From contig OY740814.1 in NCBI GenBank assembly GCA_963514005.1, positions 18,228,001 to 18,292,000 of the forward strand: 64,000 nt of DNA, in the 5' to 3' direction. This DNA comes from Raja brachyura. Its lineage: Eukaryota. The notes below the pieces were generated by a model. That model was not told the DNA's origin. It saw nothing but the letters and a program-made list of their open reading frames with translations, and did no database searches. Made by a program: the position numbers and the translations under genes. Below, piece by piece: positions 13,378 through 63,240 of this stretch. How positions within the stretch are numbered: the stretch's first letter is position 1; each line of letters begins with the position of its first letter.

Positions 13378-13473
13378 GTCTGAAGAAGGGTCTCGACCCG
13401 AAACGTCACTCATTCCTTCTCTCCAGAGATGCTGCCTGTCCCGCTGAGTTACTCCAGCATTTTGTGACTACCC
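13378..13473 (+). mobile_element. Short Penelope-derived insertion with 15-bp TSD
   Basis: Flanked by tcaagatcactatca (13363-13377) and tcaagattactatca (13474-13488). Confidence 0.9.
13380..13407 (+). ncRNA. Minimal type I hammerhead ribozyme motif (PLE type)
   Basis: CTGAAGA-A-GGGTC(TC)GACCC-GAAA-CG-TC: conserved core, 5-bp stem II, palindromic ACGT in place of helix III, GUC cleavage triplet, and a short stem I (agt/act). Confidence 0.75.
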
Positions 13474-14108
13474 TCAAGATTACTATCATTGTCCTGATTT
13501 GGACAAAGGCGATATTGAAGTGCTGGCAGGATTTAACTTGAGCGATATGTGTAGTGCCTGTTGGTGGATTATCGCAGCTTGAGGGCACTAACGTATTGCT
13601 TGTATGATCACTTGGGTTTTTCTGCTTTTGCTATATCATGTATATGTATTCCATTTTCGCACTCTCCACGGATCGCCACTCATTTTCAGACAGATGTGGC
13701 GTGTGGCTGCTCCTTACACGTTCTTCTACATTTCTCATTGAAAAAGAATTAACTTGTAGGGTTAATGCAGGTGAAACAGGGGAAGGGTATGCTGCACCAT
13801 AAATATATAATCTGTGCTTGGATACAAGTCTACTGCATTTGAAGGTCAAAGCACTCATGGAAACCCAATATTGAACACTTGGAATTGTTCTGATTCTTAG
13901 TTATAATGGTGGAAGTGTCACATAGCGCAGTAGAAGGTGATCATAGCTTGAAGACAAGACTTGATCTCCAAATGAACTAAGCAATGGTTCTTCATAGCAC
14001 AACCAGAAATCGATGAATAACCAGATCAATAGAATATTTTTCTCTGCTGTTGGTTCTCTCCCCACCTGCCTTAAGCCCACTCTGACAGTGATACACGTCA
14101 TTGTCAGA

Positions 14109-14150
14109 GTCTAGCACCAAGAGTGATTGAAATCACTCTTGGTGCTAGAC
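14109..14150. repeat. Perfect 20-bp inverted repeat with 2-nt spacer
   Basis: gtctagcaccaagagtgatt-ga-aatcactcttggtgctagac. Confidence 0.95.
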
Positions 14151-15639
14151 ATATAAGTCGTCATTCAAAATGTTGTGCCCTCGGTGGTTCTTCCATATCA
14201 AGGTCAGCGTGGACTATGGTGATTTATCAGATGTAGGTGCAAACAAAAGAAAGTTTCCTGACCTAAGGCCTTGTGCCTTGTGATTTAATGTAGAGGGCTC
14301 CCAATACCACTCCCCTTTGACCATAACACTGTGTCACACCACTGAAAGGTCTATCTTCCCAGTGAAACAGGTCATACTTAGAGGATGGATGTATCCAGGA
14401 CATTGAAAAATATGATTTTCTGAATTTGACTTGTCAAACTATTGCTTGACTGATCATTGGATAGCAGTAGTAATTTTGTTCTATGATGCTAGTGATAAAA
14501 AGCCTTGTTGGATTGAATGGATAGGTTGTGTGTCTGTTGAATCCAAATCCACTACTTGTGTTGATGTTAAACATTTCTTTCAGTTTCAATGTTATTATTA
14601 TTTACAATGTGTTGTGTTTAAATGGTTATTTGATGCATCTACATAGTTAATTTCAAAGCAATTCATTGTATTTTACGCACTTTGGGACATTCTCTGTGCA
14701 ATAATAAGGCACTAAATAAATGAAGGATTATTTTATAGCTACAGTATTCATTTTTTGCTCTTCAGCTATTCCTTTCATTCCTACTGGTTTGTCAGTAAGG
14801 AATGCTCATTTTTAGAAATGCCTTTTAAAATAATCTATGTATGTAAATAAAATAACAAATGATGAATTTTAATTAATGCCTCAGTAATGGGGTCCATGCC
14901 AGTCATTAACTCCTCAAGCTTCACTCGTACTAACTGCTTTTATATTGCCCTTGATTTAATTGGGATTTAAGAGGATCATTGTTCATGAGCTTCTTCCTGG
15001 TGTTTACACTACTGAATCATTCCTCTATATAAGTAATAGGTTACAGAGCAGTCTGTTGAAAGGATAAAATCCTATTTTATTTTGTAGTTTAAACATTGGG
15101 AGTTGACTCGCAAAAACCACTGTCCTAAAATCTTAAGTTAAACAAGACATGTTTAAAGTTGTGCTTAAATTTATGTTCAGGGAAACATTTGGTCAAGATA
15201 CAGTCCTTTGATTCACTGGCAGGCTTTCACTTAACCCAAGCTTACATTACAGTGTTCTGTGTATTATGCTAGATATTTTTCTGAATTATATTAAATTGCA
15301 AAGTACTGCTAAATTCTGTAAATATCCTATTATTTTTCTTTTACCTTTAAATATTACATATAAGCAGTCCAAATCTGTTTTCCCTTACTACTATGCGCTG
15401 ATTATTTTTTTAGCTGCAGACTCCAGAATATGCAGATTCTTGTGTCTCAAATTATTTCTGTTTATTTTGAAGAACAAATAAGTTAAAAATTCACAATTTG
15501 CTTTGCCACCCCCACCCCCCCCGTATAATAAGTGTACATATGAAATAATAGATAAAAGTAATAATCCTGACCTACCTGCTTAAAAGTTTCTAAAAATACG
15601 TACCTACTGAAACTACACATGCATCAAAAATTATCAATA

Positions 15640-16900
15640 AGAATATTAATTGGCCATATTTATACCCTTTTAATTAATTCTGGCAGCTGCTATTACTTGT
15701 TCAACCCGGGTCCATGATTGTTTGTGTCTAGTAATGGAAAAAAATTAAATAACCTAACCATTAAAAATTAATAATAATTTCAGGGGCTACAAATACAGCC
15801 CGAGAAGTAGAAGGCAATGGCATTATGACCTCAGTCAAACTGTTGGAGATGTTCCCAGTTCCAAATGTAATTCCTAGTATAAGATTATAACTCGCTTTAA
15901 AAATTGCCACTATGATCCTCATAGCCAAATGAACTCTTATTCACTAATTTTCCATACCTCTGTCTCCTGTTAATTTATTTATCTGATTTGATAGTATTTC
16001 CAGCAGCCTCTTGTATAAATGGGAGAGAAAGCTCAGATGAGAGATCTACTTAATTTTCTCCCTTGTAATTACTGATCTCATTTTTCTGATAATTTGAAGT
16101 TGTAATTGGCTACGGCAATTACATGTATATTTACTAATCACATTTGAAGCTCTGATTGTATCTATTTGCTGCCATTGATAATAAAGCAGGCAAATTGCAG
16201 AGGTGTTCTTTCTCTTTTTTCTCATCACTTAAAAGCTTCCTGAACCCTTCCACCCCCCACCATCCTGCATACTTTTATTTTTATTTTTTTGCCGTAATGA
16301 ATACATGCATGCATTTGACACAGTTATATAGTAGAGAAATTGTTTGGCTCCAACCAAATGCTACACACATTGAGTTTTGCCTGAAGCATTGAAAGGTTGT
16401 ATGTAATGATATATTGCTCATCCAAATGGCTGAAGCAGTCCAAAGCACTGTGAGATTAAAATAAGTCATCTCTTTGTTAATTTAAATAGGTGCATGTATC
16501 ATACTTTGCAAGGTAGTTTTAACAGGGATGTCACGGAGAATGCAGCCAAAAGGTATTTTTAATGGAAAAATGAGAACAGATGAAAATGCAGTCACTTCCA
16601 GCTGCCTTTTATATTCTCCTCTTCTTTAGCAATTGCAAATTTGATAAGGCAGCCATTAAACTCCCGCGGATCTTAATTTTAAGAAATTTCTGCGCATAAT
16701 TCTGTAAGATTTGACGCTTTTTGAAATTGCAAAGGAATTGCATCTGAGGGTTTTTGATATGTACTGGGAACTGCAATCAGCTTGCTGCCTTCAAATTGCT
16801 GCTCTGCAATAACTGTTTACTGATAATTGTAATGGTAATCTTTTTTATTGTTTCCTGAGTTTATGCAGTAAACCATTTGTGTGCCAAAAAATGATTATTT
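15640..16900. promoter_or_regulatory. Candidate conserved non-coding element cluster
   Basis: TE-free, dense in TAAT/TAATT and ATTGAT-like motifs, with retained CpGs (ctcccgcgga, tgcgcata, tgacgc). Conservation is inferred. Confidence 0.45.
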
Positions 16901-17375: not shown

Positions 17376-17437
17376 GATCCACCAGTCCTTCCGGTTGGAG
17401 AGTTTTCTGAGTCATTTGTACATTTCATCACTCAGTG
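17376..17437 (+). CDS. MAP2K5: MAP2K5 coding exon, 62 nt, DPPVLPVGEFSESFVHFITQ(C)
   Basis: Acceptor ctacttcccag|, donor |gtaagc, phase 0/2. Matches MEK5 DSPVLPVGEFSEPFVHFITQC. Confidence 0.96.
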
Positions 17438-19316: not shown

Positions 19317-20313
19317 ATAGAAAATTGGCTTTATGGAAGGAAGCAGATGGTGATGTAGAAGGTTGATTCTCAGACTGGAGGTCTGTGTGGTGTGCTTCAA
19401 GGTTCGGTGCTGGACCCGTTACTGTTTGTCATCTTTGTTAATGATTTGGATGAGAATGTACATGGCAAGATTAGCAAGTTTGCAGATGATACAAAAGTGG
19501 GTGATAATGCAGATAGTGAAGATGGTAGTGACGAATTGCAGCAGGATCTTGATCGGTTGGCCAGGTGGACTGAGGAATGGTTGATGGAATTTAATACAGA
19601 GAGATGTGAGGTGTTGCATTTTGGGAAGTCTATCATGGGCAGGGCCTACACAGTGGTAGGGCTTTCGGGAGTGTTAAAGAGCAGAGGGACCTAGGAGTGC
19701 ATGTACATAGTTCCTTGAAGGTGGAGTTGCAGGTAGATAGGGTGGCACATTGGCCTTCATAAGTCAGAGTTTTTAGTGTAGAAGTTGGGAGGACATGTTG
19801 CAATAATGTAAGATGTTGGTGAGGCCGCATTTAGAGTATTGTGTTCAGTTCTGGGCACCATGTTATAGGAAAGATGTTTTCAAGCTGGTAAGGGTCCAGA
19901 GAAGATTTATGAGGATGTTGCCAGGACTTGAGGAACTGAGCTATAGGGAGAGGTTGAGTAGACTGGGACTATTCCTTGGAATGCAGGAAGATGGGTGATC
20001 TTATAGAGGTGTAAAAAATCATGAGAGAAATAGATTGGGTAGATGCACAAAGTCTCTTGTCCAGAGTAGGGGAATCGAGGACCAGTGGACAAAGGTTTAA
20101 GTTGAAGGGGAAAATATTTCATAGGAATCTGAGGGGTAAATAAGAGGCAGGGACTATCGCAACATTTAATAAATAATTAGATAGGTACATAGGTAGCATG
20201 GGTTTGGAGGGATATGGGCCAAAAGCAGGCCGTGGGACTAGTGTAGCTGGGACCAGTTGGCGAATGTGGGCAAATTGGGCCGAAGGGCCTGTTTCCATCA
20301 TGTATGACTCTAT
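19317..20313 (+). mobile_element. CR1 LINE 3' half (RT C-terminal part plus 3' UTR)
   Basis: ORF 19392-19694 (QGSVLDPLLF, FADDTKVG, WLMEFNTERCEVLHFG), ORF 19813-19998 ([15 protein letters not shown]), and tail gggccgaagggcctgtttccatcatgtatgactctata. Confidence 0.93.
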
Positions 20314-20344
20314 ACCCTGCAGATGGGAAAATATTTCTCATAAA

Positions 20345-20433
20345 CACTAAAGATCACAAAGTAACTCAGTGGGTCACCTGAATCTCTGCAGAACATGGAT
20401 AGGTGACATTTCGGGTCGGGACCCTTCTTCAGT
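20345..20433 (-). mobile_element. Penelope terminal module with hammerhead core (20405-20432)
   Basis: The reverse complement reads ctgaagaagggtcccgacccgaaatgtc. Confidence 0.75.
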
Positions 20434-21090: not shown

Positions 21091-21944
21091 ACTGTCCTGG
21101 TTTCTGCGGTCACCACCCTAATTTTTTTTTAACTGTATGCTTTTCCCTCCCTCCCAATTTTCTCTGGAAGTTTCAATCTTGCTGTGGGTGGCCAAAAGCT
21201 TTCTGTGAATCCTCCATATGTCTGGAAACTGAGTCTTGACAAATTGTTCTGCTCTCACTCGCGTTCTAACATTGAGCACAAAAACACATGCCCACCCTTA
21301 TCATTAGTCAGCTAACAGCACAATCCTACAATCAAAGTAGAGTCATTCTGTAAGACCACCCAAGCCATTGAGAATACTCATGTTTATAATAATGCAGAGA
21401 TTTTAAAACAAAACCTGCATTTGTAGAAGAAAACTTGGAAATTGTATTTTTTTAAGCCATCCATCATTGAGACATTCCATTAACTGATTCGACACATGCT
21501 CTCCTTACTTGTTCCAGAAAATAATTAAACAAAATTGTAGTGTAACAAAAATAATAAAGTTCAAGATCATAGAAGTTTGCCAAGCATTTCAGTTCCCCAT
21601 CATAACCAATTGATTTCAAGGAAGAATATAAAAATAAAAAACAAAATTATGTTGGCCTTCTGGTGTACCTCCTGGAGCTGATTTTGAAGATACACTGACG
21701 GTTGCCTATCCATCCTGCAGCTATTTATAAAGATGCTTTGATACGAATTTATGTGCTGCATGAGGGATCTAAATAGGTAGAATTTTAAACTTGGGTTATG
21801 TTTTTAATCTCTTCATAATTTGTTAAGAGATGGTTCAGTACTCCTGAAGGTGTTGCAGTACAAAGGAGCTACTTTTCCATTGTAGACAGCATCCAGCATT
21901 TTCAGAGGAGCTGCAAGGAACCGCATATGCTAGAGTTCTTAGCA

Positions 21945-22060
21945 ACACATTGAGGAACTCAGTGGGCCAGGCAGCTTCTGCAGAGAAATGGACACATGAT
22001 GTTTCAGGTTGGGACCATTCTTCATCTGAAATGTCATCTGTCCATTCCCACCACAGATGA
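21945..22060. mobile_element. Degenerate fold-back Penelope terminal module
   Basis: Minus-strand arm gaggaactcagtgggccaggcagc...tcttcatctg joined to plus-strand ctgaaatgtcatctgtccattcc. Confidence 0.55.
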
Positions 22061-22423
22061 CAACCAAATTTGTGTTTTGATCAAGTGGTGTGTTTGTTTT
22101 GGAACAAAATACCAAAGACCATTGGTTGGTTGGTATGAAAGTGAAAAACTTCACTAGTAATAACTGTAACAATTACATGTTTTTAATTAATGGGTTAAGA
22201 AGCAGCAACTGTAATTCTGGTTTTGAGTTGAGATAATTAAATGCTATCCCTGGATACCAAAAATGGATCTCAACAAGATATTTACAAAAGAGATTTGGAA
22301 GTTACATTTTACATATATCCAAAAATCATGTTGATCAATAAACTGTATTTTATCTTTAAAATTGTGAATGTCATTGATAATTCACGTAGATTGTGAAATA
22401 ATGGTTGTGTTTATTTACCATAG

Positions 22424-22469
22424 CATGAGGAAGTTACCGACTGAAAGGCCTGCCCCAGAAGAGCTCATG
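22424..22469 (+). CDS. MAP2K5: MAP2K5 coding exon, 46 nt, (C)MRKLPTERPAPEELM
   Basis: Acceptor tttaccatag|, donor |gtaagt, phase 2/0, completing the TG+C Cys codon. Matches MEK5 subdomain XI MRKQPKERPAPEELM. Confidence 0.96.
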
Positions 22470-23053
22470 GTAAGTCACACTTACGTCATATAATTTGATG
22501 TACACGTAACATTGTCACATTTCATTGACCTAAGAGAAGCTTAGATTAATAGTAGCTTACTATCAAATCCTCTCAGGATTCAACATTTTATTTGAAAACT
22601 CATTAAATAATCTAACTCCATATATTCATACTTTACATACATTTTCCTACCTGAAACATGATGCAAAATGTAAGACAAATGTCTTTCTTTGAGTATATTT
22701 TTACTGATTTGAAGCAGTATATGTGCAAAATAGCAGAATAGTGCAAGATTGTAGTGTAAATCTGAGTAGTGCAAAAGAATACCTAAGTTCAGGTGGAGAA
22801 AGATATTAAGGTATTCAAACATTTGATGGAATGTTACTTTTCACTTGGGACATGTGAACAAAATTAGGTGTTACTTTGGAGTTGTACTGTTGACAGTTTG
22901 ATCCAAAATGTTGAATTATGTTTCCACAAGCCAGATAAGAGCTCAGTTTCATCTACAACACAATGAGAGAGTGTGCGGAAGTCGTTAAAGAAAGCTCAGA
23001 CATCTTGTTTGTGAGCATTAGATCCAACAAGTCTCTCCCTTTTCAAATAGGTA

Positions 23054-24396
23054 CATAATGTTTGGGACAAAGATCCATCATTTATTTATTTTCCTCTGTA
23101 CTTCACAATTTGAGATATGTAATAGAAAAAAAATCACATGTGGTTAAAGTGCACATTGTCAGATTTTATGTTGGGACACAGCAATATTATGTAAATGAAA
23201 GTAGTCATGTTTAGTATTTGTTGCATATCCTTTGCATGCAATGACTGCTTGAAGTCTGCAACTCATGGACCAGGTGCTGGATGTTTTCTCTGGTGATGTT
23301 CTGCCAGGCCTGTATTGCAGCCATCTTTAGCTTATGCTTGTTTTTAGGGACTAGTCCCCTTCAGTTTTCTCTTCAGCATATCAAAGGCATGCTCAATTCG
23401 GTTCAGATCGGGTGATTGTCTTGGCCACTCAAGGATTGACCATTTTGTTAGCTTTGAAAAACTCTGTTGTTGCTTTAGCAGTATGTTTGGGATCACTGTC
23501 TTGCTGTAGAATGAACCACCAGCCAATGAGTTTTGATGCATTTGTGTGAACATGAGCAGATAGGATGTGTCTATATATTTCAGAATTCAATACGCTACCA
23601 TCATCAGCAGTTGTATCATCAATGAAGATAAGTGAGCCAGTACCTTCAGCAGCCATACATGCCCAGGCCATAACACCCCTACCACCGTGTTTCACAGATG
23701 AGGTGGTATGCTTTGGATCTTGGGCAGTTCCTTCTCTCCTCCATACCTTGCTCTTGCCATCACTCTGATATAAGTTAATCATCATCTCATCTGTCCACAA
23801 GACCTTTCCCCAGAACTGTGGTTGCTCTTCAAAGTACTTCTTGGCAAACTGTAACCCGGGCATCCAATTTATGCGGCGAACCAATGGTTTGAATCTTGCA
23901 CTGTAGCCTATTTCTGGTCACAAAGTCTTCTGCAGACAGTGGTCATTGACAAATCGACACCTGGCTCCTCAAGAGTGTTTCTGATCTGTTGGACAGGTGT
24001 TTGGGTTTTTTTATTTATTATAGAGAGAATTCTTCTGTCATCAGCTGTGGAGGTCTTCCTTGGCCTGCCAGTCCCTTTGCGATTAGTCAGCTATCTTTCT
24101 TCATAATGATGTTCCAAACAGTTGATTTGGGTAAGCCTAAGGTTTGGCCGATATCTCCACAGTTTTACTCTTGTTTCTCAGTCTCATAATGGCTTCTTTA
24201 ACTTTCATTGGCACAACTTTGATTTTCATGTTGATAAACAGCAATAAAGGTTTCTAAAGGTGATGGAAAGACTGGAGGAAAGACTATGTGCTAAGAGCTC
24301 TCCTGTACCTGCATTAAGGCGGCAATTAAACACACCTGAGCAATTACAAACGCCTGTGAAGCCATGTGTCCCAAACATTATGGTGCCCTGAAATGG
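23054..24396 (-). mobile_element. Tc1-family DNA transposon with decayed DD(34)E-type transposase (remnant CDS about 24229 to 23211)
   Basis: Minus-strand motifs KVLWTDE, KHGGRGVMAWACM, FILQQDSDPKH and WPRQSPDLNRIEH; N-terminus MKIKVVPMKVKEAIMRL at 24229. The inverted motif cataatgtttgggaca (23054) pairs with tgtcccaaacattatg (about 24367). The termini appear truncated. Confidence 0.92.
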
Positions 24397-25479
24397 TACC
24401 CCAATTGTACCCTAATTGCTGCCCCAAGATTTGTGAAGCTAATTCTTTTGGTCACTGCTGTCTTTATAACAATAGTTGGAAGGTGCTGGTAAAGTCTAGT
24501 CTGGTGTACCTGATATATTTCTGAGCCTTCGTCCATTATTCATTCTGTTCATTCAGAAATATGTCTGGCCATTTTTCAATCTATATTGCACAGCACATCT
24601 TGAAAAGTTTGTTGCCATTATGCCTTTGGATGTTGTGCCTATGCTTTTTGATTACTTTTTGCTTTCTTCATTTTTTGTTTACCTGGCCTCTGTCCAGGAT
24701 CCATAATCTTTGTTAATAGTAAAATGTTAGCGAGAGCAAGAATAATGTTTTATTTTTTGAATTGCAGCTGCATGCAAACCTGTTCTGCCTCAAGTCAAAA
24801 ACAAATCAAAGCATTTATAATCATAAACTCAATCCAATCCATCGAGTACATTCAGTTGTTTAAAAATATATAGCAAACTTCACTGAAATGTTTGAAAATA
24901 ATTTATTTAAACTTCAAAAAATAAAAAGCCTTCAAAATAATATTAACAGCATTTTCAGTGTCTTTTCTACAATTAAGTTGATTCAAAAGGTTATATATAA
25001 CACAGGGAACCAAAGTTGCACTCTACAGCGACACTGTTCATTGTTGTGGCAAGAATATGAAATGTTCCCTGTGACATGGGTAAAGGAGCTGCATGCAGCA
25101 CACCAGGAGTGCAGGGTGGCAAAGTTGACATTTCCTCGGGAATTGGCCATTCATCCTAGTTTTTATAAGTTTACTCATTGGTCTTGATTTTTGATTGAAC
25201 TACAGGGTGGCAGATTTACACCACATCAAATACCACTGAATGCATAGTCACTAAAATACAATAACTCTGCCCACAAATAACCAGAATGCTGTCCTTCATT
25301 CTCTCAGAAATTTGAACACAAAATTCACAAGTATGTGAATGAACACAATATTTTTTAAGTGTTTTGAGGATTTAGTGTCATCTGCTTGTGAAATTATTCA
25401 AAAAAACAAGCTTTTCGTAGAGCCTTTTAATAAATACAACATAACGAGTGCACTTTTTCCATGAGTATTCATTGGGTCT

Positions 25480-25800
25480 TTGAGAGATGCAGCATGGAAA
25501 CAGACTCTTCCTGACTCATTCCACTGAGTCCATGCTGACATTGGTCACTATTCCTACATTCATCCTTTTTTAAAATTCTCCTTATGATCTTATCAACACC
25601 CTGAGACAATTTACAGTCACTAATTAACTTCTCAATTCACACATTTTTGGGATGTAGAAGGAAACTGGAGACAAAGAGACAAAAAGACAAAGCCGACACA
25701 TTAACAGGGAGAACATGCAAACTCCACACAAACAACACTGTGGTCAGGATTAAACCTGGTTTTCCGGCACTCTGAGCCGGTAGCTGTGCCATGGTGCTGT
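25480..25800 (-). mobile_element. V-SINE
   Basis: gggagaacatgcaaactccacaca and ggaaactggag are the V-domain reverse complement; the tail is near 25480. Confidence 0.75.
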
Positions 25801-25949
25801 CTTCTAACACCATGTAAAATCTAAATATTACACCGGATTTGACAAGCATCTTTCTTTTAGGATCCTGTGAGATTTCTAAATCGAAAAGAATATTTTACAA
25901 AGCAAAGAACTCCACGTTTTTATAAGCTGTTCATTTTGAAGATAGATTC

Positions 25950-26800
25950 AAGAGTAACTGTTAAAGAATTGGAGTCTGGAGGGCTTTCAGGGAGCTGCTG
26001 TCAGCTTTGAAACAGCGTTCACTGATTGTAAATGACATCTAGCAAGGGGGAGGAAAGCAGCCAGAGAATAATTCCCAATAGGTCATTTATTCAGCACTGT
26101 TTGTTGATTTGACAATGAACAAGCTGTTAAGAATATCTGTGGCATCCAACAGAACTAGTAAATAATAATTATACTGTGCCTCTCCTCACTTTATCTCCTG
26201 TTGTTATTTTGTTAGACTCATTTATACTGTTTCTTCACTGGGGCAGCTGAAGCTGCTATTGTATTAAGCACTTTTGTTTTAAAGTCATTCTTTGTAATCA
26301 AGCGGCAGGCAGCCATTATAATTCAAAAACAACTAGTTCTGACCATCTTAAGTGGCAACATTCTGTGAGTTTGTTAATTACATTTCTGCAGTAAAGCCCC
26401 CTTTTTCAGCATAGATGCAGTCTTTACAACGGGAGATGGAGCATAAATATAAATCAGACCTCTTAAGTGCTAAGCAATTTTGTTCATTTGGTGAAATGAA
26501 ACTTGGAAGCATTTTTTGCACCTCCTGAAATAGATTAAATCAATCCTCAAAAACCCACTATTGTCATACAATTGAAGCACGTTTGTTCTTCAGTGGGAGT
26601 TGATAATTAATCTGAATTTGGAACTTTGCCTTCAGGGGAGAAGGTTACCATTAGAGCTTGAAATTTTGGAAGCGGCTTAGGCTTAAATAGGCTATAAAAT
26701 ACATCATATTTAACAAAAAATGGAAGCCACATTGTGGTGGAGAACTTTAAAACTGATTTCAATGGGTGCAGTTTACAGGTAGCTTCTGACTTTGTTGAGG
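25950..26800. promoter_or_regulatory. Candidate conserved non-coding block
   Basis: TE-free, with homeodomain-like and E-box motifs (taatcaagcggcaggcagccattataattc, cagctg). Inferred. Confidence 0.3.
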
Positions 26801-27764
26801 TCTGATCTGAGCCAATAACTTCAATTTATAAGCTTAGTTTTTTTTTTCTTGGGATGTGGACAAAGTTTGCCTTATTGGTGCAGAAAAGTGACAGGTTATC
26901 ATCTCATCCATCAATTGTGTGAACTGTTGAGGATTTCATAGGCCTGTTCAGAGGGTATTGATAATTAGTTCCAACGAGAAACCAGCATCACATCTGGAAT
27001 AGATTAGCTAGCATGATGGGTCTCCTCCTAAGGTATTAGTGAATCAGCTGGGTTTTGAGACACATAATTTTCTTTGTTTGAACAAATTTACTGAATTCAG
27101 TTCACAACTCCCTCGGAAAGGATTGCAAACATTTTAGTTTGTTAGTTTAGCGCCATGACTACTCACTACAACATTTCAGGAAAGCATTTGCTAAAGATTA
27201 GAAGTGTTATTATTAGAATCGTGTGATTTTGAAGTTTATCATTCTTCATATAGTTGAATGAAGATGTAGACTGGATACAAATAATGCAAAACGCCTCTCC
27301 CAAAGGTCCAGTAATAGGTTCACTGACCCAAACAGACCAGGAGGTTTCAAATGGCTTGCTTTGAATTACCCTGCTGTCAGCTTGGCTGGTTGTAAGAATA
27401 CTATGTTTGGCCTCTGTGCCTTTCAATATATAGGGGCAGTGAAAGGGATTCTCACTCCTAATTGCAGCCGAGTCATCTCTGCCAGTTAATACAGAGAGAT
27501 GTGATGCTCTGTGCAATTAAATATCCATGCCACACTTGTTATTTGGGCTCTAATATGATCACTCAGTAAAGGACATGGAAGACTGCTTGTACCCAAGTAT
27601 AACCAGCAAAAGAGTTTTTTACAGATATTCATATTTTTCAATTCATGTAAATATGGCTTCAACAGGCTGGTGATGTCACTTTAAAGTATACAAGTAATTT
27701 CACAGCATTTTAATTGTTGCCGTTCTTCACACACAGCGGAAAATCATGGTAAGATATACAAGTA

Positions 27765-27960
27765 GAATACAATGTGCAGGAGAAACTCAGTGGGTCAGAC
27801 AGCATCTGTGGAGGAAATGAACAGATGGTGTTTCAGGCCACATCTGCATATGGATCTGACCTGAAATGTTGTCTGTCCATTCCTTCCACCGGACCCACTG
27901 CCTTCCTCCAGCACTTTTGCATTTTGCTCAAGATTCCAGCATCTGTTGTTCCTTTTGTCT
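27765..27960. mobile_element. Degenerate fold-back Penelope terminal module
   Basis: ggagaaactcagtgggtcagacagcatctgtgg (minus arm) followed by ctgaaatgttgtctgtccattcc...ctccagcacttttg...cagcatctgttgttcc (plus arm). Confidence 0.6.
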
Positions 27961-29725: not shown

Positions 29726-29784
29726 GAATGTCCCATGTTGCAACTCGGGGGGCTAATGACCTGGATGCCAAGACCCCTCTGTAC

Positions 29785-30264
29785 ATCAACCTGATCTCCC
29801 AGTTGCTAAGCAGTTTAATTCTCCCCATTCCCACACAGACCTTTCTGTTCTAGGTCTCCTCCATTGTCAGAGTGAGGCTAAATGCAAATTGGAGCAACAG
29901 CATCTCATAATTTGCTTGGGCAGCTTACAGCCCAGTGGTATGGAGATTGATTTCTTTAACTTCAGATAGCCCTGGTTTTCCCTCTCTCTACCCCTGGCTA
30001 CTCGTTTTCATCCAAAAAGCAGCTAGCAATGGCCAGTTTCCTTTATCATTGTTACTTTTTTGCATATCTTTCATTCATTTGTCTTTATCTCTCTACATCA
30101 TCGTCTATACCTCTCGTATCCCTTATCCCTAACCAGTCTGAAGAAGGGTCTCGACCCAAAATGTCACCCATTCCTTCTCTCCAGAGATGTTGCCTGCCCC
30201 GCTGAGTTACTCCAGCTTTTTGTGTGTTATCTTCGGTTTAAACCAGCATCTGCAGTTCCTTCCT
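29785..30264 (+). mobile_element. Penelope-like element 3' end (GIY-YIG C-terminus plus terminal module)
   Basis: Reads PDLPVAKQFNSPHSHTDLSVLGLLHCQSEAKCKLEQQHLIICLGSLQPSGMEIDFFNFR*. The hammerhead-like motif at 30138 has GAAA changed to AAAA. Confidence 0.88.
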
Positions 30265-31000
30265 AAGAATCCTTTCCAATAGCTTCACTACCACTGATGT
30301 GATGCTCACCAGTCTATAATTTCCTGCATTATCCCTGCTGCCCTTCTCAAACAAAGAATTACCATTAGCTACTCTCCAGACCTCCGGGACCTTTACTGTG
30401 ACTGGAGGGAATGCAAAGGACTTTGTCAATGCCTCAGAAATTTCCTCTCTTGTCCCTGTCAATAACCTGGCCTAGATCCATCAGGGTTTGGAGATTAAGT
30501 CCCTGTCCCACTTAGGAGACCTAAACCGCAACTTCTGGTGACCTTGCCCACACCCAATGTTTCCATGAGGTCACCGGAGGTTTTGGTCACTCTCACTAAT
30601 GGTCGAAAGTGGTTTCCGTGTGGTCAAGGCTTCATCTAGGTTGCTGCTATTGTTTCATCATGATTATAACTGGACTCGACTAAAAATAGGTTGCTGTTTT
30701 AAAAATCGATAATTTTTTGGTCGCAGGTCTTATCGAAGCCAATTTTCTTCATAGGCGAGGAAGGTCTTCAACATATGCATGGGAGGTTGTAGGAGGTTGC
30801 AGGTCATCTCGACCTTGATTTTTTTTTGGGGTGGCGGGCAAGGTCACCAGCGGTTGCTGTTTAGGTCTCCCAAGTGGGACAGGGGCTCCTTCAAGAGACC
30901 CAAAGCCATTACCTTCTTGGTCTCAAAATATCCAAGCCTACCCCATACTGATCTCATTATCCCTTATGAGCTTCTCCTTCGTGAATATCGATGCACAGCA
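30265..31000 (-). mobile_element. CR1 ORF2 fragment interrupted by a MITE
   Basis: ORF 30238-30462: VPEVWRVAN...FEKGSRDNAGNYRLVSITSVVVKLLERIL. CR1-like sequence resumes after 30888. Confidence 0.75.
30498..30887. mobile_element. Non-autonomous DNA transposon (MITE) with about 60-bp imperfect TIRs, possibly PIF/Harbinger
   Basis: Left end agtccctgtcccacttaggagacctaaaccgcaacttctggtgaccttgccc; right end gggcaaggtcaccagcggttgctgtttaggtctcccaagtgggacaggggct. No transposase is present. Confidence 0.85.
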
Positions 31001-32939
31001 CTTGTTAGTACCTTATATTAACTTGTAATTGCAACTTTCATTTAGGATCTTCAAGAAAATTTGTCACACTTTATGTGTGAGATGGTTATATTGGGGAATG
31101 GTTCACATCTAATCACTGACCACCTATAACAAAACAATAATGTAAAGCATGCTCCTCCATTACAATGGCATGAGGAATAAAAGGTTTCTATGGATTTCTC
31201 TAAAATCTGGGCTCACTCATTAAAGAGCATTTGATGTTTTGCCAAGTTTTTATCCAATAAGTTATGAACTGTTTCCCAGTGAGAATGTGTTGACATCTTA
31301 GGAAAACAGATTTAAGGTGTTAGGCATTGATATGACACAAAGAAACATTTATTATTGTTGTGACCTAGAGTCCACTTCCTGAATGGATGGTGAGAGAAGT
31401 ATTAAGTAGTACGTTAAAAGGGAATCAATTACAGTGCTATGGGAACCAGGGAAAATTGATGATTGGAAAAGCTGTTTCCAAGAATATCACAGCTATGATA
31501 GGATGAATGCATGACGTGGTCTATGTTGGTATGAGACCCCATCCAATATGTTTCAGCCTCAGTCTCAGAAGAGCGCTCTGTGTATTGGTCTTTTCCCTTT
31601 CTGACAAGCTCTCCCTTTCTAAGTTTACCAGTTTATCTCTAGGAGCTTGATTGAGTCTACCCAAAACAGAAAATGCAAAGATTATAAAGCATCAATCAAC
31701 ATCTTTTAAAGATAAAAGATTTGTTATTTCAATTTGGTTTACTTTATGATTCACGTGCAAAAATGGATGCATCACTGAACAGTGTTGAGGGCAGGAGAAC
31801 TGTGGAGACGTGTCCTGTGATTAAATTTGCTCAAATGCATTTGTAAGTTCAAACAGAGTTTGCGATCTGTGTCAGAACAGTATTTGAATCTAGGCACCAG
31901 AATTGAAATGACTGTATCTAATTATATTTACCACCAGAATACGCAGGCTTTAAGTGAAAACTGTCAGGGTTAATACTGTTGATTGCAAAATTGAGAATTA
32001 GCAATGTTCAGGTAATTGAGCAGTTTGGGGGGAAAAAAAGTAAATCTTTGTCATCACATATCTCCCTTTGGTCACATTTAAATATTCCACACTTCTATCT
32101 ATTTATGATCTTGCTTCTTATGCACCAGAAATGACTCGATCTCTAGTGTGTTGGAAGAACTAATGGTTGGCTTCAATCATACTAACAGTGAGGTGGGAAT
32201 CCTTTTGCAAACATAGCTATGTAAACACATTGAAATATTAATTTGAAAAAAATGGTAAATTGTGTTTCAACTTTCATAAAGCGAATGCTGAAGTAATTAA
32301 TTTCCAAAGTACGTGGCAAAAACAAAAAAGTAGCAGTTAGTATAAAGTTACAATTTAATTTCACTAATGAGGCCTACACTGGTGGAATGAATGTTGTCGG
32401 TATGCTTTTATTGGGAAATAAACAAGTGACTTTCTTGCCCTTTGGAGGGTTAATGAAACAGGGCCAATTTATTGCTTTTAAGGGTATGGCCCCATTCAAT
32501 GTTGGTCAGACTGTACAGGAAAAGCATTTGTTGGCCAAGGATCACAGGTTTGGGGTGAGAAAGATTCAGCAGGGTAGATTTACTTACCCTGAGGGCAGGA
32601 TGGATAACAGTGGTGGTGCTAGTATCACATTTTGCACTAGAATCAAGGACAGGGCCAGAACATAAAGATTTATAAAGTCCAATTCACTACATGGATTATC
32701 AGAATGGCTACAGGGCAGCTGTAAAAATCATCAATTAAGAGGTCATTGCTTTAGTTTGCTTGAGTAAACAGCTTTGACGTGCAATAAAGTGAATGTGCCT
32801 GGTGACTGCACAGAAGCATAACACTGTATTCAATGGGTCACGTAATGTGTTCCTTAACACCACCTATAGTCACAATACCATTGCAGTGTTGCATCCACAA
32901 ACTACTTTAAAAAGTATCTGCTTTTAGTATTTTCAGTGT

Positions 32940-45120: not shown

Positions 45121-45237
45121 ACGAAGATAGACACAAAATGCTGGAGTAACTCAGCGGGACAGGCAGCATCTGTGGAGCGAAGGAGTGAGTGACGTTTCGG
45201 ATGAGACGTCTGAAGAAGGGTCTCGACCCGAAACGTT
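45121..45237. mobile_element. Minus-strand Penelope module fused to a plus-strand hammerhead motif (45210-45237)
   Basis: gaagatagacacaaaatgctggagtaactcagcggg...gacgtttcgg, then ctgaagaagggtctcgacccgaaacgtt. Confidence 0.85.
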
Positions 45238-45967: not shown

Positions 45968-46100
45968 AGTCTGAAGAAGGGCCCTGACCCAAAACATCAC
46001 CTATCTATGTTCTTCAGAGATGCTGCCTGACCTGCTGAATTACTCCAGCACTTTGTCCTCTTGCGTATTAACCAGCATCTGCAGTTCTTTGTTCCTACAT
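45968..46100 (+). mobile_element. Penelope terminal module (degenerate hammerhead)
   Basis: agtctgaagaagggccctgacccaaaacatc...accagcatctgcagttcttt. Confidence 0.85.
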
Positions 46101-46279
46101 TCCCAAATATATCAATGTGTACTATCTGTTGGAGAGGCAGACCCACACTGACTACATAACCAATAAACAATGTTCAGTGGAGGGGTGTTGGAAAATAAGT
46201 CTGCTGTGGGTAAAAAGGAGGGGGTGGGGGGGGAGGTTGGTGGTTGATGTCATTGATCAATAAAGTGGTGGTATGGACA

Positions 46280-46460
46280 ATTTGGTGGACATTGGACTTT
46301 GTCTGTGATACTGATGCACTACAATGCTGAGAACTATGTTCTGCACTCTGAATCTCCCCCTTTGCTCTACCTGCGCTTGAGTTTGATTTGATTGTATTTT
46401 ATAAATGGGATATCTGATTTGTTTGGATAGCATGTAAAACAAAGTTTATCACTGCACTTC
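46280..46460 (+). mobile_element. Rex-Babar-like LINE 3' tail
   Basis: Reverse complement of the tail at 33240-33400 (ggacattggactttgtc...ctacaatgctgagaactat). Confidence 0.7.
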
Positions 46461-46894
46461 ATTGTTAAAATGAAGGGGGCTGAGGGTTTGGCGCAGACTT
46501 GCGGAGTATGGTCCCTTGGGAAGACCGGGGGGGGGGGAGCTACATAATTTGGAGATGGGGGAGTTTTTCATGCAGCACTGAGCTCACTAGGTTTACATAC
46601 CCAAATGAGACCATTTGCTGTGCTGGGCCAACATAGTCTAATATCCGTGCAAAGTTCCAGAGGGAGCGCTGATTAAGGAATGACATCTATCTGGCTTGTG
46701 AGAATTGCCTCGATGAATTTCCAGGGTCATTCAGAATAGCCTAAATAAAGACAATAATCTTTTTCACATACATTTCAATCATATTGCATTGAAATCAACA
46801 ATTCAAAGCAATCAAATTTTGAGCCAGAGGTATCGAGCCATGCAGCCCTTCCAGCATTGATTCCCACTCGGTGCTAAGTGGGGAGTGCTCCAGG

Positions 46895-47025
46895 AGTCTG
46901 AAGAAGGGTCCCGACAGGAAACGTCACCTATCCATGTTCTCCACAGATGCTGCTTGACCTGCTGAGTGACTCCAGCACTTTGTGTCTTTTTTTGTAAACC
47001 AGCTTCTACAATTCCTTTTTTCTAC
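46895..47025 (+). mobile_element. Penelope terminal module sharing its 3' flank with the copy at 34959
   Basis: agtctgaagaagggtcccgacaggaaacgtc...ttcctttttctac, followed by 53 nt matching 35088-35140. Confidence 0.85.
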
Positions 47026-48454
47026 CAAGCACTATAATTATCCTTAGTCATTAGCTGAGGAGGGAAAGAATCATGCAGATGGACTTAGTCAAAAGAGTTA
47101 CCTGTGCAGTCCCAAAGCTGTTTCATGCAATCAGGCAGGACTACATTTTTATTTGAGAATGGCCACTTGAATTACACTGAACATGCGTCAATACTTTCAA
47201 TGCAGCAAAACCATGATCAAAAGAAAATAATTTTTACTATGAAGGGAAAGAATTTGAGGAATTTATAGAGGATGAGAAAACGGAGGTCACCATCAAATTT
47301 ATGAGAAACATTGGCTGGCTCAGAGCATAGAATGTAATGGCAATCGATGCTTGCCTTCTCTTCCCTATTTGTGGAGTGTAACCTTGTCCTGACCCAGATA
47401 TTTCAATGTATGTCACTTTATTTGTATGCTTTCTGGAGTACAAATCCATGCAGAGAAATTGAAGTGGTTGAGGGACATGGCTTTAAAATATAGCTCATTC
47501 AGTTCAGGGCCATTCCTACCAGATCTGAGTTATATACAGTATGTGTGTACACTGTAGTTTATGGCAATATTTTCATTTCACAATTGTTCAAATGAGAAAA
47601 TAGTCAAAATCAGTGTAAAACAGGTATAAATATCTCAGCATTATTTTCAGAAGATCTATTATATGTTTGTCCCCGGCCACCCAGCTTTTTAAATATCTGA
47701 ATGGCCCGGATTGGGTGCTGTTAGCCTTGAAGTTTAACCTCTATTAGAAAACACTGTGGGCTGCCAGTAGCTGAAGATTACCCTTTCTCAACAAAATGAG
47801 AACTGACAAGTTGATTTTAAGAGGCTGGTTTGTCACTGTTTACCTAATTTTCAAAGTTGACACAGAAAATTAGTCTGGCTGGCACTCACTCCGTGGCCTG
47901 CTTTCCAGTCCATTGACTCTGCCTCTTCCTGATGACCTCTTCTCATTCAGCGAGTGCATGTCCACGGAGCATCAGAACATTTTGTTTTACCAAATTCACC
48001 TGATTTTCGCATGTTTTCCTGATGCTCAAATAGATTCACATTCATGTTATGTTGTTCATTGTTTTGGATGTATCTACTATGGTGTTTGGTGTCAAATACC
48101 ATAAATTAGAAAATGCTGAGCCTGAAATATTTAATATCACATCACTGTATGAATGACATTGTATGAAATTCTACCAGCTGTTGCATGCTTATCAGCATTT
48201 ATGGAAGGTTTAAATGACACAGGGGCATGTAAATTTCAATGACCCCCCTCGAGTCCCTGTGTGCCTTGTTTAAAAACAGTTTGTAGTTCAGTATGTTGTG
48301 AGGGATAGAAGATTTGGACGCAGAAGTGAGTATCTGGAAATGGAGTTGCACAAAAAAGAGAGACTCAGGGAAGTGAGAGAGAGCAAATTGGTGGTCGTAC
48401 ATTCAGTCACAGCTAGTTCAGCTTGTTCAGGATTACATATAAACATATATGCTG

Positions 48455-50607: not shown

Positions 50608-51020
50608 ATGTAGAAAACACAAAGTGCTGGAGTAACTCAGCAGGTCAGGCAGCATCTCAGGGGAACATGGATAGCTAAATTTTCGGGATGAGACCATTTG
50701 CAGACTGATTGTTAGGGGTGGAAGGGGGGTGAAGAAAGTAGAAAGAGAGGAAGGGCAGGAAAAGGCCAGACAGGGATTAGATTGACACAGGCGAGGAGGG
50801 TTTTTTGACAGGTAGATAGTTGAACAAAAACCAGAGATGAAAAGAATAGAAGGCGTGAGGCAAAGGGATTGAAGAGTTGCAAATTGTGAAGCTAGAGGAA
50901 GGAATGGAGGGGGAGGTGAGAAATGGGTGCGAGTCCAGGTGAGGCCCAGGAAAGTGGGGGAAAGAAGGGGTGGGTAAATTGTGGGAGAAGGGGAGGGTTA
51001 TGCATGTTTTCAAGTTACTT
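50608..51020 (-). mobile_element. Penelope-like 3' non-coding region and terminal module
   Basis: tgtagaaaacacaaagtgctggagtaactcagcaggtcaggcagcatc...; colinear with 5216-5830. Confidence 0.8.
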
Positions 51021-53005: not shown

Positions 53006-53110
53006 GTTCATCCATTTGTTGTGCACTACAACGACAAGAACGCTGAGGTGGTTTCCATGTGGGTCTGCAGGATGCTTGAAGAAAGACGCTCACAACAGGG
53101 GATCCAGTAA
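53006..53110 (+). CDS. MAP2K5: MAP2K5 terminal coding exon, VHPFVVHYNDKNAEVVSMWVCRMLEERRSQQGIQ*
   Basis: Acceptor cctttctttgcag|, phase 0, stop TAA at 53108-53110. Matches the MEK5 C-terminus GHPFIVQFNDGNAAVVSMWVCRALEERRSQQG. Confidence 0.96.
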   Translation, partial: VHPFVVHYNDKNAEVVSMWVCRMLEERRSQQGIQ

Positions 53111-55730: not shown

Positions 55731-55934
55731 GTAGACAAAAATGCTGGAGAAACTCAGCGGGTGAGGCAGCATCTATGGAGCGAAGGAAATAGGCAACGTT
55801 TCGGGTCGAAATCCTTCTTCAGACCCAAAACGTTGCCTATTTCATTCGCTCCATAGATGCTGCCTCACCCGCTGAGTTTCTCCAGCATTTTTGTGTACCT
55901 TCGATTTTCCAGCACCTGCAGTTCCTTCTTAAAC
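55731..55934. mobile_element. Fold-back Penelope terminal-module insertion with 16-bp TSD
   Basis: TSD atcaagtaaatagatg at 55715-55730 and 55935-55950. Inverted arms meet at about 55822. Confidence 0.93.
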
Positions 55935-59667: not shown

Positions 59668-60060
59668 TTTAAGAAAGAACTGCAGATGCTGGAAAAATCG
59701 AAGATAGACAACAATGCTGGAGAAACTCAGTGGGTAAGGCAGCATCTATGGAGAGAAGGAATATTTATTTCTGTCCTGGGCCTCTGCCATAGCCAGAGTA
59801 AGGCCCAGTGCAAATTGGAGGAACAGCACCTCATATTCACTTGGGTAGTTTACATCCCAGCGGTATGAACATTGACTTCTCCAATTTCAGATAGTCCTCG
59901 CTTTCTCCTTCCCCTCCCCTTCGCAGCTCTGCCGAAGCCTGCTGTCTCCGTCTCTTCCTTTCCTTTTCCCCGCCCCTCCCCCCCCGACATTAGTCTGAAG
60001 TAAACGTCGCCTATTCTCTCCATAGATGCTGTCTCACCAACTGAGTTTCTCCAGCATTTT
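59668..60060. mobile_element. Penelope 3' fragment (+) preceded by an inverted terminal module (-)
   Basis: Minus arm 59668-59760, then plus-strand ISVLGLCHSQSKAQCKLEEQHLIF (GIY-YIG end) and a module whose stem II is deleted (ctgaagtaaacgtc). Confidence 0.82.
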
Positions 60061-60379
60061 TAATTACAGTAACATGTTCAATACGGACCCATCACCTCAC
60101 CTGAGTTCCAGGCTCAGCACCAGACCCATAACCTCCACGATGTAGACTCTGAGAGCACGTGGCCTGACTCTGCTGGGTCCTATTGCTCCCCCCCCCCCCC
60201 CCAACAGGGGACCATAGCAGTGATTGATCCTCCCATTCCCCCCTCTTTAAACCAGGTTCCCCTGACCACACCCCACCCGTACAATAGACCTCACGCCCCC
60301 TCCTCTTTGACTACCCAGCACCCCCCACCCCCCCAACCAGATCTTGCCTCAGCCTTTGTCCACTCCCCGGCCCCCCTCT

Positions 60380-61538
60380 GACCCCAACCTTGCCATGTCT
60401 TCACCATTCTCCCTGACCTCCCCCTTTCTGATAAGGCACGGTCTGTCCTCAACAGAGGCCTCACCTTCGTTCCCCTCTGCCCCCACCTCAACGAGTTCCG
60501 GGTCCGCCACAACGTAGAGCTTTTCTTCCGTCGCCTCCGCCTTCGTGCCTTTTTCTATGGGAAGGTCCTCACCACCCAGTGATGACCCATTCTCCCATCT
60601 TCCCCCTCCTCTTGGACTCCCAAGAATGGCCTTCTACCCTCTCTAGACCTCTTTATTTCTAACTGTCTGTGTGACATCAACAGTCTCAACTTTTCCACTC
60701 CCCATACCTATACGGCTTTTCCACCCCACATACGCCTCCGCTCAGCATCCCTGACATAATCAAACCTGCTGACAAGGGAGGTGCCGTGGTAGTCTGGCGC
60801 GTTGACCTCTACCGGGCTGAGGCCAGGTGACAACTCAAAGACACCACCTCCTACTTATCCTTGGACCATGATCCCACAGATGAGCACCAGGCCTTAATCT
60901 CAAACACCATTACAGATTTCATCACTTCTGTCTGTCTGCCTTCCATAGCCTTCAACCTTATCGTTTCCCAGCCCCGCACAGCCCATTTTTACCTTCTCCC
61001 CAAAATCCACAAACACAACGGCCCTGCAAGACTGATTGTTTCTGCCTGCTCCTGTCCCACTGACCTGAGCAGGCAGAAACAGCCCAGTGGTGTGAATATT
61101 GATTTTTCTCGCTTCAGGTAGCCCCGGCATTCCCCCTCTCTCCATCTTCCCAATAACCCTCTTTCGCTAAACCCCTCCCTTCACCACCTCCAATTTAAAT
61201 TCCAGTTGGAATATTTTGGAGGACCAAGTAACCAAGAACCAAGAATCCCTCCCCCACCCAAGTCACACTAGCTTCTCATTTTCACCCTACAAACAGCTAA
61301 CAATGGCTTGTTTCCTTTATCATCGATACTTTTTTGCATATCTTTCATTCATTGTTCTTTATCCCTCCACATCACCGTCTATATCTCTCGTTTCCCTTAT
61401 CCCAACCGTCTGAAGAAGGGTCTCAACCCGAAACGTCACCCATTCCTCCTCTCCAGAGATGCTGCCTGTCCCGCTGAGTTACTCCAGCTTTTTGTGTGTA
61501 TCTTTGGTTTAAACCAGCATCTGCAGTTCCTTCTTACA
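60380..61538 (+). mobile_element. Internally deleted Penelope-like element (N-terminal/early RT joined to ORF end and terminal module)
   Basis: LSDKARSVLNRGLTFVP...FFRRLRLRAFF; IIKPADKGGAVVVW; FYLLPKIHK..PARLIVSACSCPT joined directly to QPSGVNIDFSRFR*. Confidence 0.9.
61410..61437 (+). ncRNA. Minimal hammerhead ribozyme motif, intact core
   Basis: CTGAAGA-A-GGGT(CTCA)ACCC-GAAA-CG-TC in the 3' module of the Penelope element. Confidence 0.7.
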
Positions 61539-61884
61539 TAATAGGTTCAATATGTTAGACTTAAAGAAACTGCTTCACTTGTTGGTGAGGTCAGAACAAA
61601 GGGAAAATAGGTAGGAGTGATTAAAAGGATTTAGACGGAGTTTGTTCAATCACAGTTTACAAATGTACTGAACTAAGTGGTTAAACTAAAATGTATTATT
61701 ACATTTAAAGGTCATCCTGATGCAAGCTTGAGGTGTGAAGGGAAAGCAAAGCAGTGGGGGAAGTTAGGAAAAGTGGGGAAAGACTTGTCTGAAGATTAAA
61801 CACCATTATTGATCCATTTGGCCAATTCCAAATTGCAGATTCCATGCAAGCTACATAGACAATTTGATTTATTATAGATTCAAA

Positions 61885-62080
61885 GAACATAAAAATGTAC
61901 AGCCCAAGAACAGGCCATTCAACCCAGAATGTGTATGCCAAACACGATGCCTAAACCAACTCTTATCTGCCTGCACATAATCCATATCTTTCCATCCCCT
62001 GCATATCCTTGTCCTTATGCAAAACTCTCTTAAATGCCACTATCATAACTGCTTCAACCACCACCCCCAGCAGAGCCAGG
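61885..62080 (-). mobile_element. CR1 3' end
   Basis: gaacataaaaatgtacagcccaagaacaggccattcaaccc...tccatatctttccatcccctgc. Confidence 0.75.
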
Positions 62081-62374
62081 CACTCCCCCCCCCCCCCCCC
62101 CATTCAAACGAGTGCAGTAATCTTACACCATGCAAGTTATTTATTTATGACAGGCTAATTTCTATATTTTAAATCATTTTAAAATGCCCATTACCAGTGG
62201 CCAGCATGTACTGTGGTTTGGTATTTATCTCAAAGGATAATCACCTTGCAGATGAATTTCTAAGAATATTCAAAATGTTTATATCTGGTAATTTAGAAAC
62301 GAGAGAGATTCTGCTCACTTCCCATTTCTCTCTGTGGTACGCTTTGCTTTATTGAGAACAGTAAAAAAATCAAA

Positions 62375-63240
62375 GATTCCAATAAGATCTAGACGAACTG
62401 GGCAGGTGGGTCAAGGAATGACAAATGGAATTTAACTTAGACAAATGCAAATTTGCATTTTTGGTCATTAAAACCAGGGAAGGGCTTACACACAAAAATG
62501 GCAGGGCCCTGGAGAGTTTTGTGGAACAGAGACTCCCTGAAAGTAGTGACACGGGTAGACCTGGTGTGGGAGAAGTTTGGCAAACTCTATGCTTCATCAG
62601 TCAGAACATTAAGTACAAGAGTTGAGATGTCATGAGACCATACTTGAGGAATTGTGTTCAGTTCTGGTCACCCCGATATAAGAAGGATTTCATTAAGCTG
62701 GAAAGGATGCAGAATAGATTCACTCGGGACTGGCGGACATGAGTTAAATGGAATGACTGGATAGATAGGGTATTTTTTCCCTGAAGCTGAGCGCTGATCT
62801 TATAGAGGTGTATAAAATAATGAGGGCCCTGGATAAGATCAATAGTCACTATCTTTTTCCAGGGGAGGAAAGTATAAAATTGGAGATTTACGGTGAGATT
62901 TAAAGAGGACCTGAGTGGCAACTTTTTCACACACAATGCAATGGATATGTGGAAAGAGCTGCCAGAGTACACTATTGAGGCAGGTACAATTACAACATTT
63001 AAAATACATTTGGACTGGTACATGGATATAAAAGCCTCATAGGGATATGGGTCTAACATAGATATATGGGGTCTGAAGACGGGTCTCGACCCGAAACGTT
63101 GCCTATCTCCTTCGCTCCTTAGATGCTGCTGCACCCGCTGAGTTTCTCCAGCTTTTTGTGTACCATAGGTATATGGGGATTAGTTCAAATAATCAACTTG
63201 GTCGACATGGCCTGTTTCCATGCATAATAACTCTATGCCT
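62375..63240 (+). mobile_element. CR1 LINE 3' part with a nested Penelope module
   Basis: MEFNLDKC, gaattgtgttcagttctggtcaccc (CVQFWSP), DLIEVYKIM, and a 3' UTR ending cctgtttccatgcataataactctatg. Confidence 0.85.
63072..63163 (+). mobile_element. Short Penelope-derived insertion with 15-bp TSD and hammerhead core
   Basis: TSD catagatatatgggg (63057-63071) and cataggtatatgggg (63164-63178); motif ctgaagacgggtctcgacccgaaacgtt at 63073-63100. Confidence 0.9.

Follow-up and report, generated by a model that had tools for sequence, protein, structure and literature searches.

A minimal hammerhead-ribozyme motif that recurs throughout a 64,000-nucleotide (nt) stretch of the Raja brachyura genome is part of the terminal repeat of a 4-kb Penelope-like element (PLE). 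The stretch—hereafter the window, positions 18,228,001 to 18,292,000 of contig OY740814.1 in assembly GCA_963514005.1—carries the end of a gene that we take to be MAP2K5, going by known motifs and by the original prediction, a note that a model had made from the letters alone. In our reading, which we hold with a probability of about 0.7, the repeats are end pieces of the PLE, their likely template was the capped, uncut beginning of its RNA, and the copies within MAP2K5 are probably inert passengers. The observations that carry this reading are an intact element whose two repeats both bear the motif, a common 5′ edge, 3′ ends of two kinds, duplicated target sites, and modules paired in inverted orientation.

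A search with the reverse transcriptase (RT) remnant of the window retrieved copies whose open frames reach up to 1,226 codons. In the intact element L074, modules at 2984 and 6966 enclose a frame of 1,203 codons (3114–6725), giving a unit of 3,982 bp; L076 has the same layout with a hammerhead module in each terminal repeat. This makes the link to PLEs, which the original prediction had drawn from nearby GIY-YIG ends, a direct one. The L074 translation contains DKG, YIDD, and YIG motifs, and its GIY-YIG domain is C-terminal and preceded by a C-x4-C-x2-C linker. Pseudo-long terminal repeats (pseudo-LTRs), inverted truncated copies, and a tail of 30–40 bp—hallmarks of PLEs—are all present. Judged by motif, the layout points to a Neptune- or Nematis-type PLE, the linker being common to both: EN+ PLEs of the Neptune type (Craig et al. 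2021, PMC8557442) carry a CX2-5CxxC linker, which Nematis shares. In contrast to Neptune, microsatellite targeting is not seen in the duplications listed here, and the frame has considerable length and contains a proline-rich insert. Within the window, four loci retain coding remnants 5′ of the module, which match the L074 protein at 34–79% and are set apart from the module by 97–500 nt of non-coding sequence. The module does not sit directly behind the GIY-YIG end, as had been proposed, but follows an untranslated region (UTR) of 165 nt at 30135 and 285 nt at 61407, and a UTR of 97 nt lies between the stop codon and the module at 59992. As a separate observation, many long copies of an older subfamily (L002–L015) are homologous up to about 700–740 bp from the 3′ end and then no further, a limit that is possibly a second preferred 5′ edge.

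We number positions from +1, the A three bases 5′ of the core; the motif spans +1 to +34, cleavage is predicted after +31, and the hammerhead makes up the first 31 nt of a module of 93–133 nt. A module profile of about 132 nt, derived from six copies in the window, detects 34 fragments there and none when the window is reversed. The motif recurs at the places first proposed and all nine copies listed as decayed are recovered by the profile, but the estimate of about 15 copies is too low by roughly half. A hammerhead descriptor is passed by exactly the six copies for which an intact core had been claimed (C3 at 13380+, 45210+, 61410+, 63073+, 33067−, and 20432−, the earlier minus-strand coordinates having been the 3′ ends of copies), and the catalytic core CUGANGA...GAAA...UH is present in each.

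The motif has the layout and the listed sequence traits of the minimal type I hammerhead of PLEs. One base lies between A9 and G10.1 in 19 of 20 descriptor matches in 380 kb, which bears out the extra nucleotide suspected after A9, and the 10.1–11.1 pair is most commonly G–C (144 of 235 copies). Helix III had been described as an ACGT palindrome; ACGU occupies its place in 12 of the 20 matches and in five of the six window cores, the sixth, 20432−, having AUGU instead. Since a 2-nt loop cannot close a stem, stem II, first drawn with such a loop, is better read as 4 bp with a YNCG tetraloop. Helix I consists of U+3 paired to A or G at +32 and G+2 paired to C+33, followed by an A·C mismatch; of 46 copies with a palindromic core, 31 have a helix I of 2 bp and only three one of at least 3 bp. 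This stands at the low end of the published range of 2–5 bp. The predicted probability of helix I is about 0, and the entire hammerhead fold has near-zero weight in the folding prediction. Because folding programs leave the tertiary contacts of hammerheads unscored, these predictions are weak evidence. An Rfam search of the window gave six matches at E ≤ 5 with no hammerhead among them, and three weak matches to miRNA families fall on inverted module pairs.

Across 12 clusters of 7–27% divergence, +1 to +31 varies almost only in the loop, with +32 to +50 being variable, and the catalytic bases, stem II, and the palindrome are all kept. The expected conservation of core and stem II is seen at this level, whereas a formal test of constraint is borderline: two consensus lines differ at 1 of 31 positions in +1 to +31 and at 12 of 60 elsewhere (p = 0.054). 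Another stretch further downstream is likewise conserved. Two subfamily changes at paired positions retain pairing, from U–A to U·G and one-sided; a two-sided compensatory stem change was found neither between subfamilies nor between these clusters, and a candidate older subfamily with such a change was dismissed as one copy in 815 that forms no cluster. The conservation fits a ribozyme, yet by sequence it would not discriminate one from a promoter. In the young subfamily (L074:2984–3115), the predicted fold pairs the core at +5 to +14 with the pyrimidine end of the tail at about +120 to +131. Such a pairing would, in the model, mask the core and place the RT start beside the 5′ end; older subfamilies match less well here, and purines may simply be pairing with pyrimidines by chance.

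The hammerhead is of a kind already known, the published minimal PLE type. Minimal hammerheads in the pseudo-LTRs of metazoan PLEs (Cervera and De la Pena 2014, PMC4209133) have the same CUGANGA core, G10.1–C11.1 pair, and GAAA, list the extra unpaired base before G10.1 as a trait, carry an ACGU palindrome in place of helix III, and occur as one copy per terminal repeat and mostly as solo copies genome-wide—all as in R. brachyura. The closest row by eye is Neptune of Acropora digitifera, with a GGG-led stem II of 4 bp, a tetraloop, and CGUC. Helix I differs, as most published rows have 3–5 bp and few have 2 bp. No row for a shark, a skate, Callorhinchus, or Leucoraja was found in the portion of the PMC4209133 supplement searched. 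Among the literature search results and the papers cited here, neither the present PLE family nor a hammerhead at a capped PLE RNA start is described, and the role of PLE hammerheads is called an open question (PMC8557442).

The very high copy number that had been suspected is borne out by 69,281 matches to a 28-position core pattern in the 2.70-Gb genome against none for the pattern read backwards. About 4,000 copies are given for coelacanth and about 9,000 for Xenopus in PMC4209133, with a different descriptor and hence not by the same measure. In 98 position-picked stretches of 10 kb, 449 fragments were found, which scale to 1.06–1.42 million fragments and 4.3% of bases. With about 46 fragments per 100 kb genome-wide, a density to which that of the window is comparable, the window is ordinary. 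This makes for a young PLE family with intact frames at about 4% of a vertebrate genome. The same 980 kb of position-picked DNA holds 207 core-bearing copies, of which 76 run straight into unrelated flank, 84 adjoin an inverted partner, and 47 retain the UTR. Since 84 of these cores sit in inverted pairs, a good deal of double-stranded RNA is to be expected from this genome, and editing sites or small RNAs might arise from it. Parts of modules also recur as short head-to-tail stutters (L246–L248, L088:7033–7299, and run X19), some with a single G at the junction before +1.

The copies share a 5′ edge and two 3′ ends. Among 103 well-preserved copies of a smaller, earlier sample—a count that takes in some copies with UTR outside the reference set—50 start at 0 to +4 and two at +32 or +33. 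Seventeen of the 22 duplications detected in flank-joined copies abut or overlap +1 to +3, so this edge dates from insertion. A strict duplication finder gave 28 of 174 copies as against 9 of 300 shuffled pairs, and it misses many duplications. The 3′ ends fall at +90–99 in 49 and at +130–134 in 31 of 112 flank-joined copies; these two sites, about 38 nt apart, delimit the PLE tail, and in the inverted pairs at 33 kb and 55.8 kb each kind of 3′ end is found on one arm. Likewise, in PAc, a Poseidon element of Anolis carolinensis (Frangieh et al. 2024, PMC11167929), a tail of 30–40 bp lies between two internal RT start sites. The PAc frame starts in stem II and its RT starts lie inside the frame, whereas both 3′ ends found here (+93–99 and +132) precede the first in-frame ATG of L074 at +167. 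Read by eye, an upstream ATG at +55 (L074:3038–3163) starts another frame, some 41 codons long, which runs across this main ATG out of frame.

The base before +1 is C in 71 of 75 long copies. Among 50 flank-joined copies with AGT intact it is G in 13, A or T in 10, and C in 27, and genome-wide counts give G 5,244 vs A+T 6,376 before +1 and G 466 vs A+T 1,672 before +5, an about threefold excess of G (odds ratio 2.95). This excess is not seen in 46 inverted-pair copies. None of 25 G-preceded copies retained the UTR; duplications were found in six of these, four of which leave exactly one G outside, and in an independent run stutter junctions carry a lone G before +1. In L1 and SVA insertions, an untemplated G has been explained by the cap (PMC3287187), and PLE promoters are located in the terminal repeat (PMC2377424, PMC3846280). 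Taken together, this suggests a capped RNA start at about +1.

A template cut by the ribozyme would give copies that start at +32. Genome-wide, young-subfamily starts number 160 at +32, 75 at +33 (counted with a stricter pattern), and 164 at +35, and older-subfamily starts 656 at +32 and 517 at +33. These counts reveal no clear peak at the cut site in either subfamily, hence the templates appear to have been mostly uncut. A start peak at this site was also considered in 25 older-subfamily loci and rejected, most +32 matches there being internal deletions or inverted junctions. Thousands of copies begin at +1, and every one of them spans the cut site. The copies would then map the probable RNA start, the sites where copying starts, and a mostly uncut template—in agreement with PAc, for which insertion in vitro drew mainly on unprocessed RNA as template and the hammerhead was dispensable for insertion (PMC11167929)—and a clear test of this is possible.

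The following course of events is proposed. Transcription would start at about the A numbered +1, which would make the hammerhead the first 31 nt of the RNA. The RT-endonuclease would begin copying inside the PLE RNA at about +93–99 or +132: from a start in the upstream repeat, copying would run off the 5′ end after about 100–130 nt and leave short copies, sometimes with a G added from the cap, from a start in the downstream repeat it would leave longer truncated copies, and two starts would yield inverted pairs. The ribozyme, with its 2-bp helix I, might cut only when dimeric or assisted by protein, in the RNA of master elements, and its cleavage would not be needed for insertion.

Several points weigh against this reading. 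The domains of the L074 frame score below the curated Pfam cut-offs (RVT_1, E = 5e-4; GIY-YIG, E = 2e-3), and a PDB sequence search with the intact frame gave no match. Duplications of 9–16 bp are as few as 22 in 112 flank-joined copies. The two genome-wide tests for G use different mismatch rules, and a first test of the cap G found it in 6 of 21 copies, a small sample and not significant. Parts of the element occur in 24 runs, all of them as assembled contigs, and the best five are only presumed to be RNA. Among sorted loci, flank-joined starts amount to 9 of 30 at +32, 2 of 20 at +33, and 5 of 30 at +35, such that a small excess, or a small class of cut-derived copies, is possible. Finally, the sequence before +3 resembles a splice acceptor, a pyrimidine tract with CAG, as in Drosophila Penelope. 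A helix I completed by splicing, with an upstream exon giving its 5′ strand, is not supported: short copies have no common sequence before about −1, and a GT..AG joint is absent from the 15 joints shown of 106. In many published PLE hammerheads, TCAG-, TTAG-, or TCA-like bases lie just 5′ of helix I (Xenopus 1, Takifugu, Nasonia, and Ixodes 2, by eye in Figure S3 of PMC4209133), for which an initiator and a splice acceptor are alike conceivable.

The original prediction had proposed a distinct short element that bears the ribozyme. An independent, non-autonomous unit of this type—similar to a short interspersed nuclear element or a retrozyme, transcribed from its own copies and mobilized in trans by the PLE protein—would account for the 160 of 207 core-bearing copies without UTR as well as for their own duplications and fixed 5′ edge, and solo modules could contain an internal promoter. 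Non-LTR retrozymes (PMC7229834; bioRxiv 10.64898/2026.07.22.740005) are likewise non-coding, bear a type I hammerhead, and are kin to PLE terminal repeats, from which the preprint derives animal retrozymes; it also reports them in one chondrichthyan genome. However, retrozymes are tandem units with a hammerhead each, whereas the copies here are dispersed, solo or head-to-head, about 100–130 nt long, and end at the PLE tail sites, with only short stutters seen; no array of at least two head-to-tail units with complete hammerheads occurs among the 34 window fragments, and in the sampled DNA intact cores on the same strand are separated by 204 to 6,950 nt. Both 3′ ends match those of long copies, and the solo copy of the young subfamily at 63070 shares 97.8% identity with the repeat of the intact element. 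As the short copies equal the terminal module of an autonomous PLE, with lengths from less than 100 nt to 4 kb, a separate element is not supported, and we regard an independent one as unlikely. The motif might instead owe its retention chiefly to a role as core promoter or as a protein-binding site where the RNA starts, its cleavage having been lost. The short helix I, the near-zero weight of the fold, the lack of two-sided compensation, and the borderline constraint would all suit this, and the Penelope promoter is internal with a downstream element that contains ACGT (PMC2377424). Yet catalytic bases, stem II, and palindrome persist in all 12 clusters and both subfamily changes at paired positions preserve pairing. 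Published rows with a 2-bp helix I exist for Drosophila, Culex, and Oikopleura (PMC4209133 supplement), and the anole ribozyme is likewise inactive until protein is added (PMC11167929). We regard a role mainly as promoter or binding site, without cleavage, as improbable.

The claim that 13380 and 45210 are sense copies within the MAP2K5 transcript holds insofar as the MAP2K5-like exons lie on the plus strand around both, while 55795, 59995, 61410, and 63073 lie beyond the stop codon. That such copies cut host pre-mRNAs, MAP2K5 among them, and affect their processing is nevertheless very improbable. Copy 13380 is sense, intronic, and intact in its core with a helix I of 3 bp, and with about 69,000 intact cores in the genome some will come in pairs: 6 of 98 sampled stretches hold two on one strand. 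However, this helix I has a predicted probability of about 0 and no partner core is nearby, the only other sense core in the gene, 45210, being 32 kb away and incomplete; it ends at about +32, has a helix I of 0 bp, and its core is predicted to pair with the upstream inverted arm. By these predictions, both are poor ribozyme candidates. The core-intact copies in the gene comprise two sense and two antisense ones (20432 and 33067), copies decay freely with CpG sites going first, and published minimal hammerheads are inactive as monomers with low activity as dimers (PMC4209133), eight of nine Xenopus dimers showing no cleavage (bioRxiv 10.64898/2026.07.22.740005). Nothing in the helix I, folding, and partner analyses points to an effect on MAP2K5, and both the motif and its intronic presence are ordinary for a genome with this fragment density. 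AATAAA hexamers are found 3′ of the MAP2K5 stop at 53157, 53959, and 56202; if the last of these is used, the hairpin at 55.8 kb falls in the 3′ UTR.

A more far-reaching version of the PLE end-piece reading is tentative, and taken jointly in all its parts we would not expect it to hold: the hammerhead, as the first 31 nt of a capped PLE RNA, might act as a self-decapping switch. This switch would be held off by the 2-bp helix I and by pairing of the core with the tail where copying starts, would fire only on binding of the PLE protein or of a second RNA, and by firing would limit translation or transposition. If true, the cap site and the two RT start sites used in vivo would be preserved in about a million copies, and the TCAG/TTAG-like bases before many published PLE hammerheads would suggest a general layout.

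Table 1. Modules, PLE remnants, and MAP2K5-like exons in the window, with module positions counted from +1.
Position	Strand	Feature	Location or remark
13377–13472	+	Module +1 to about +96; core intact; helix I 3 bp; 14–15-bp target-site duplication	MAP2K5 intron
20344–20432	−	Module from about +4; catalytic core present; AUGU palindrome; helix I 0 bp	
29784–30269	+	5′-truncated PLE: GIY-YIG end (stop 29967–29969), 165-nt UTR, module 30135–30269 with tail	G12 and C15.2 mutated
32938–33161	both	Head-to-head inverted pair, flank duplicated; minus arm +3 to +133, intact core 33067–33040; plus arm +13 to +98 without tail	Folds as a single long hairpin of 80–90 bp, −160.7 kcal/mol
45120–45237	both	Inverted pair; minus arm +14 to +100; plus arm +2 to about +32, core 45210 intact	MAP2K5 intron
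55732–55933	both	Inverted pair; minus arm +2 to +95; plus arm +19 to +132; stem II damaged; about 16-bp duplicated flank	Beyond MAP2K5 stop; hairpin of 80–90 bp, −150.0 kcal/mol
59668–60060	both	Inverted module, GIY-YIG end (stop 59892–59894), 97-nt UTR, module with stem II deleted	
60319–61541	+	Internally deleted PLE: RT N-terminal remnant (amino acids 472–706 of intact frame, 59–79% identical), GIY-YIG end (stop 61119–61121), 285-nt UTR, module 61407–61541	Core intact, with tail
63070–63171	+	Young-subfamily module +2 to +93; core intact; 14–15-bp duplication	4-bp helix I supplied by target site
5216–6747	−	Old PLE remnant: RT thumb and GIY-YIG pieces 5835–6747, decayed module 5322–5216	
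8191–8317	+	Decayed module	
34959–35088	+	Decayed module with tail	
41853–41963	+	Decayed module; 14-bp duplication	
45968–47025	+	Two decayed older-subfamily modules, 45968–46099 and 46895–47025	Each begins at +1 after a G
21913–27957	both	Two old inverted pairs, 21913–22059 and 27756–27957	Absent from original prediction
50615–50706	−	Decayed module behind pyrimidine-rich UTR	Absent from original prediction
63288–63682	both	Old inverted pair 63288–63438 and two more fragments	
10067–10099, 17376–17437, 22424–22469, 53006–53110	+	Last four coding exons of MAP2K5-like gene	Last exon ends in stop

Besides these features, the window contains frames at 1980–3779, 19359–19694, 33732–34181, and 23429–23917, which we take to resemble proteins of CR1/L2-type long interspersed nuclear elements and a Tc1-type transposase. 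The stretches 34959–35140 and 46895–47078 have about 50 nt in common beyond the tail (83% over 98 nt), which suggests a composite repeat or a local duplication.

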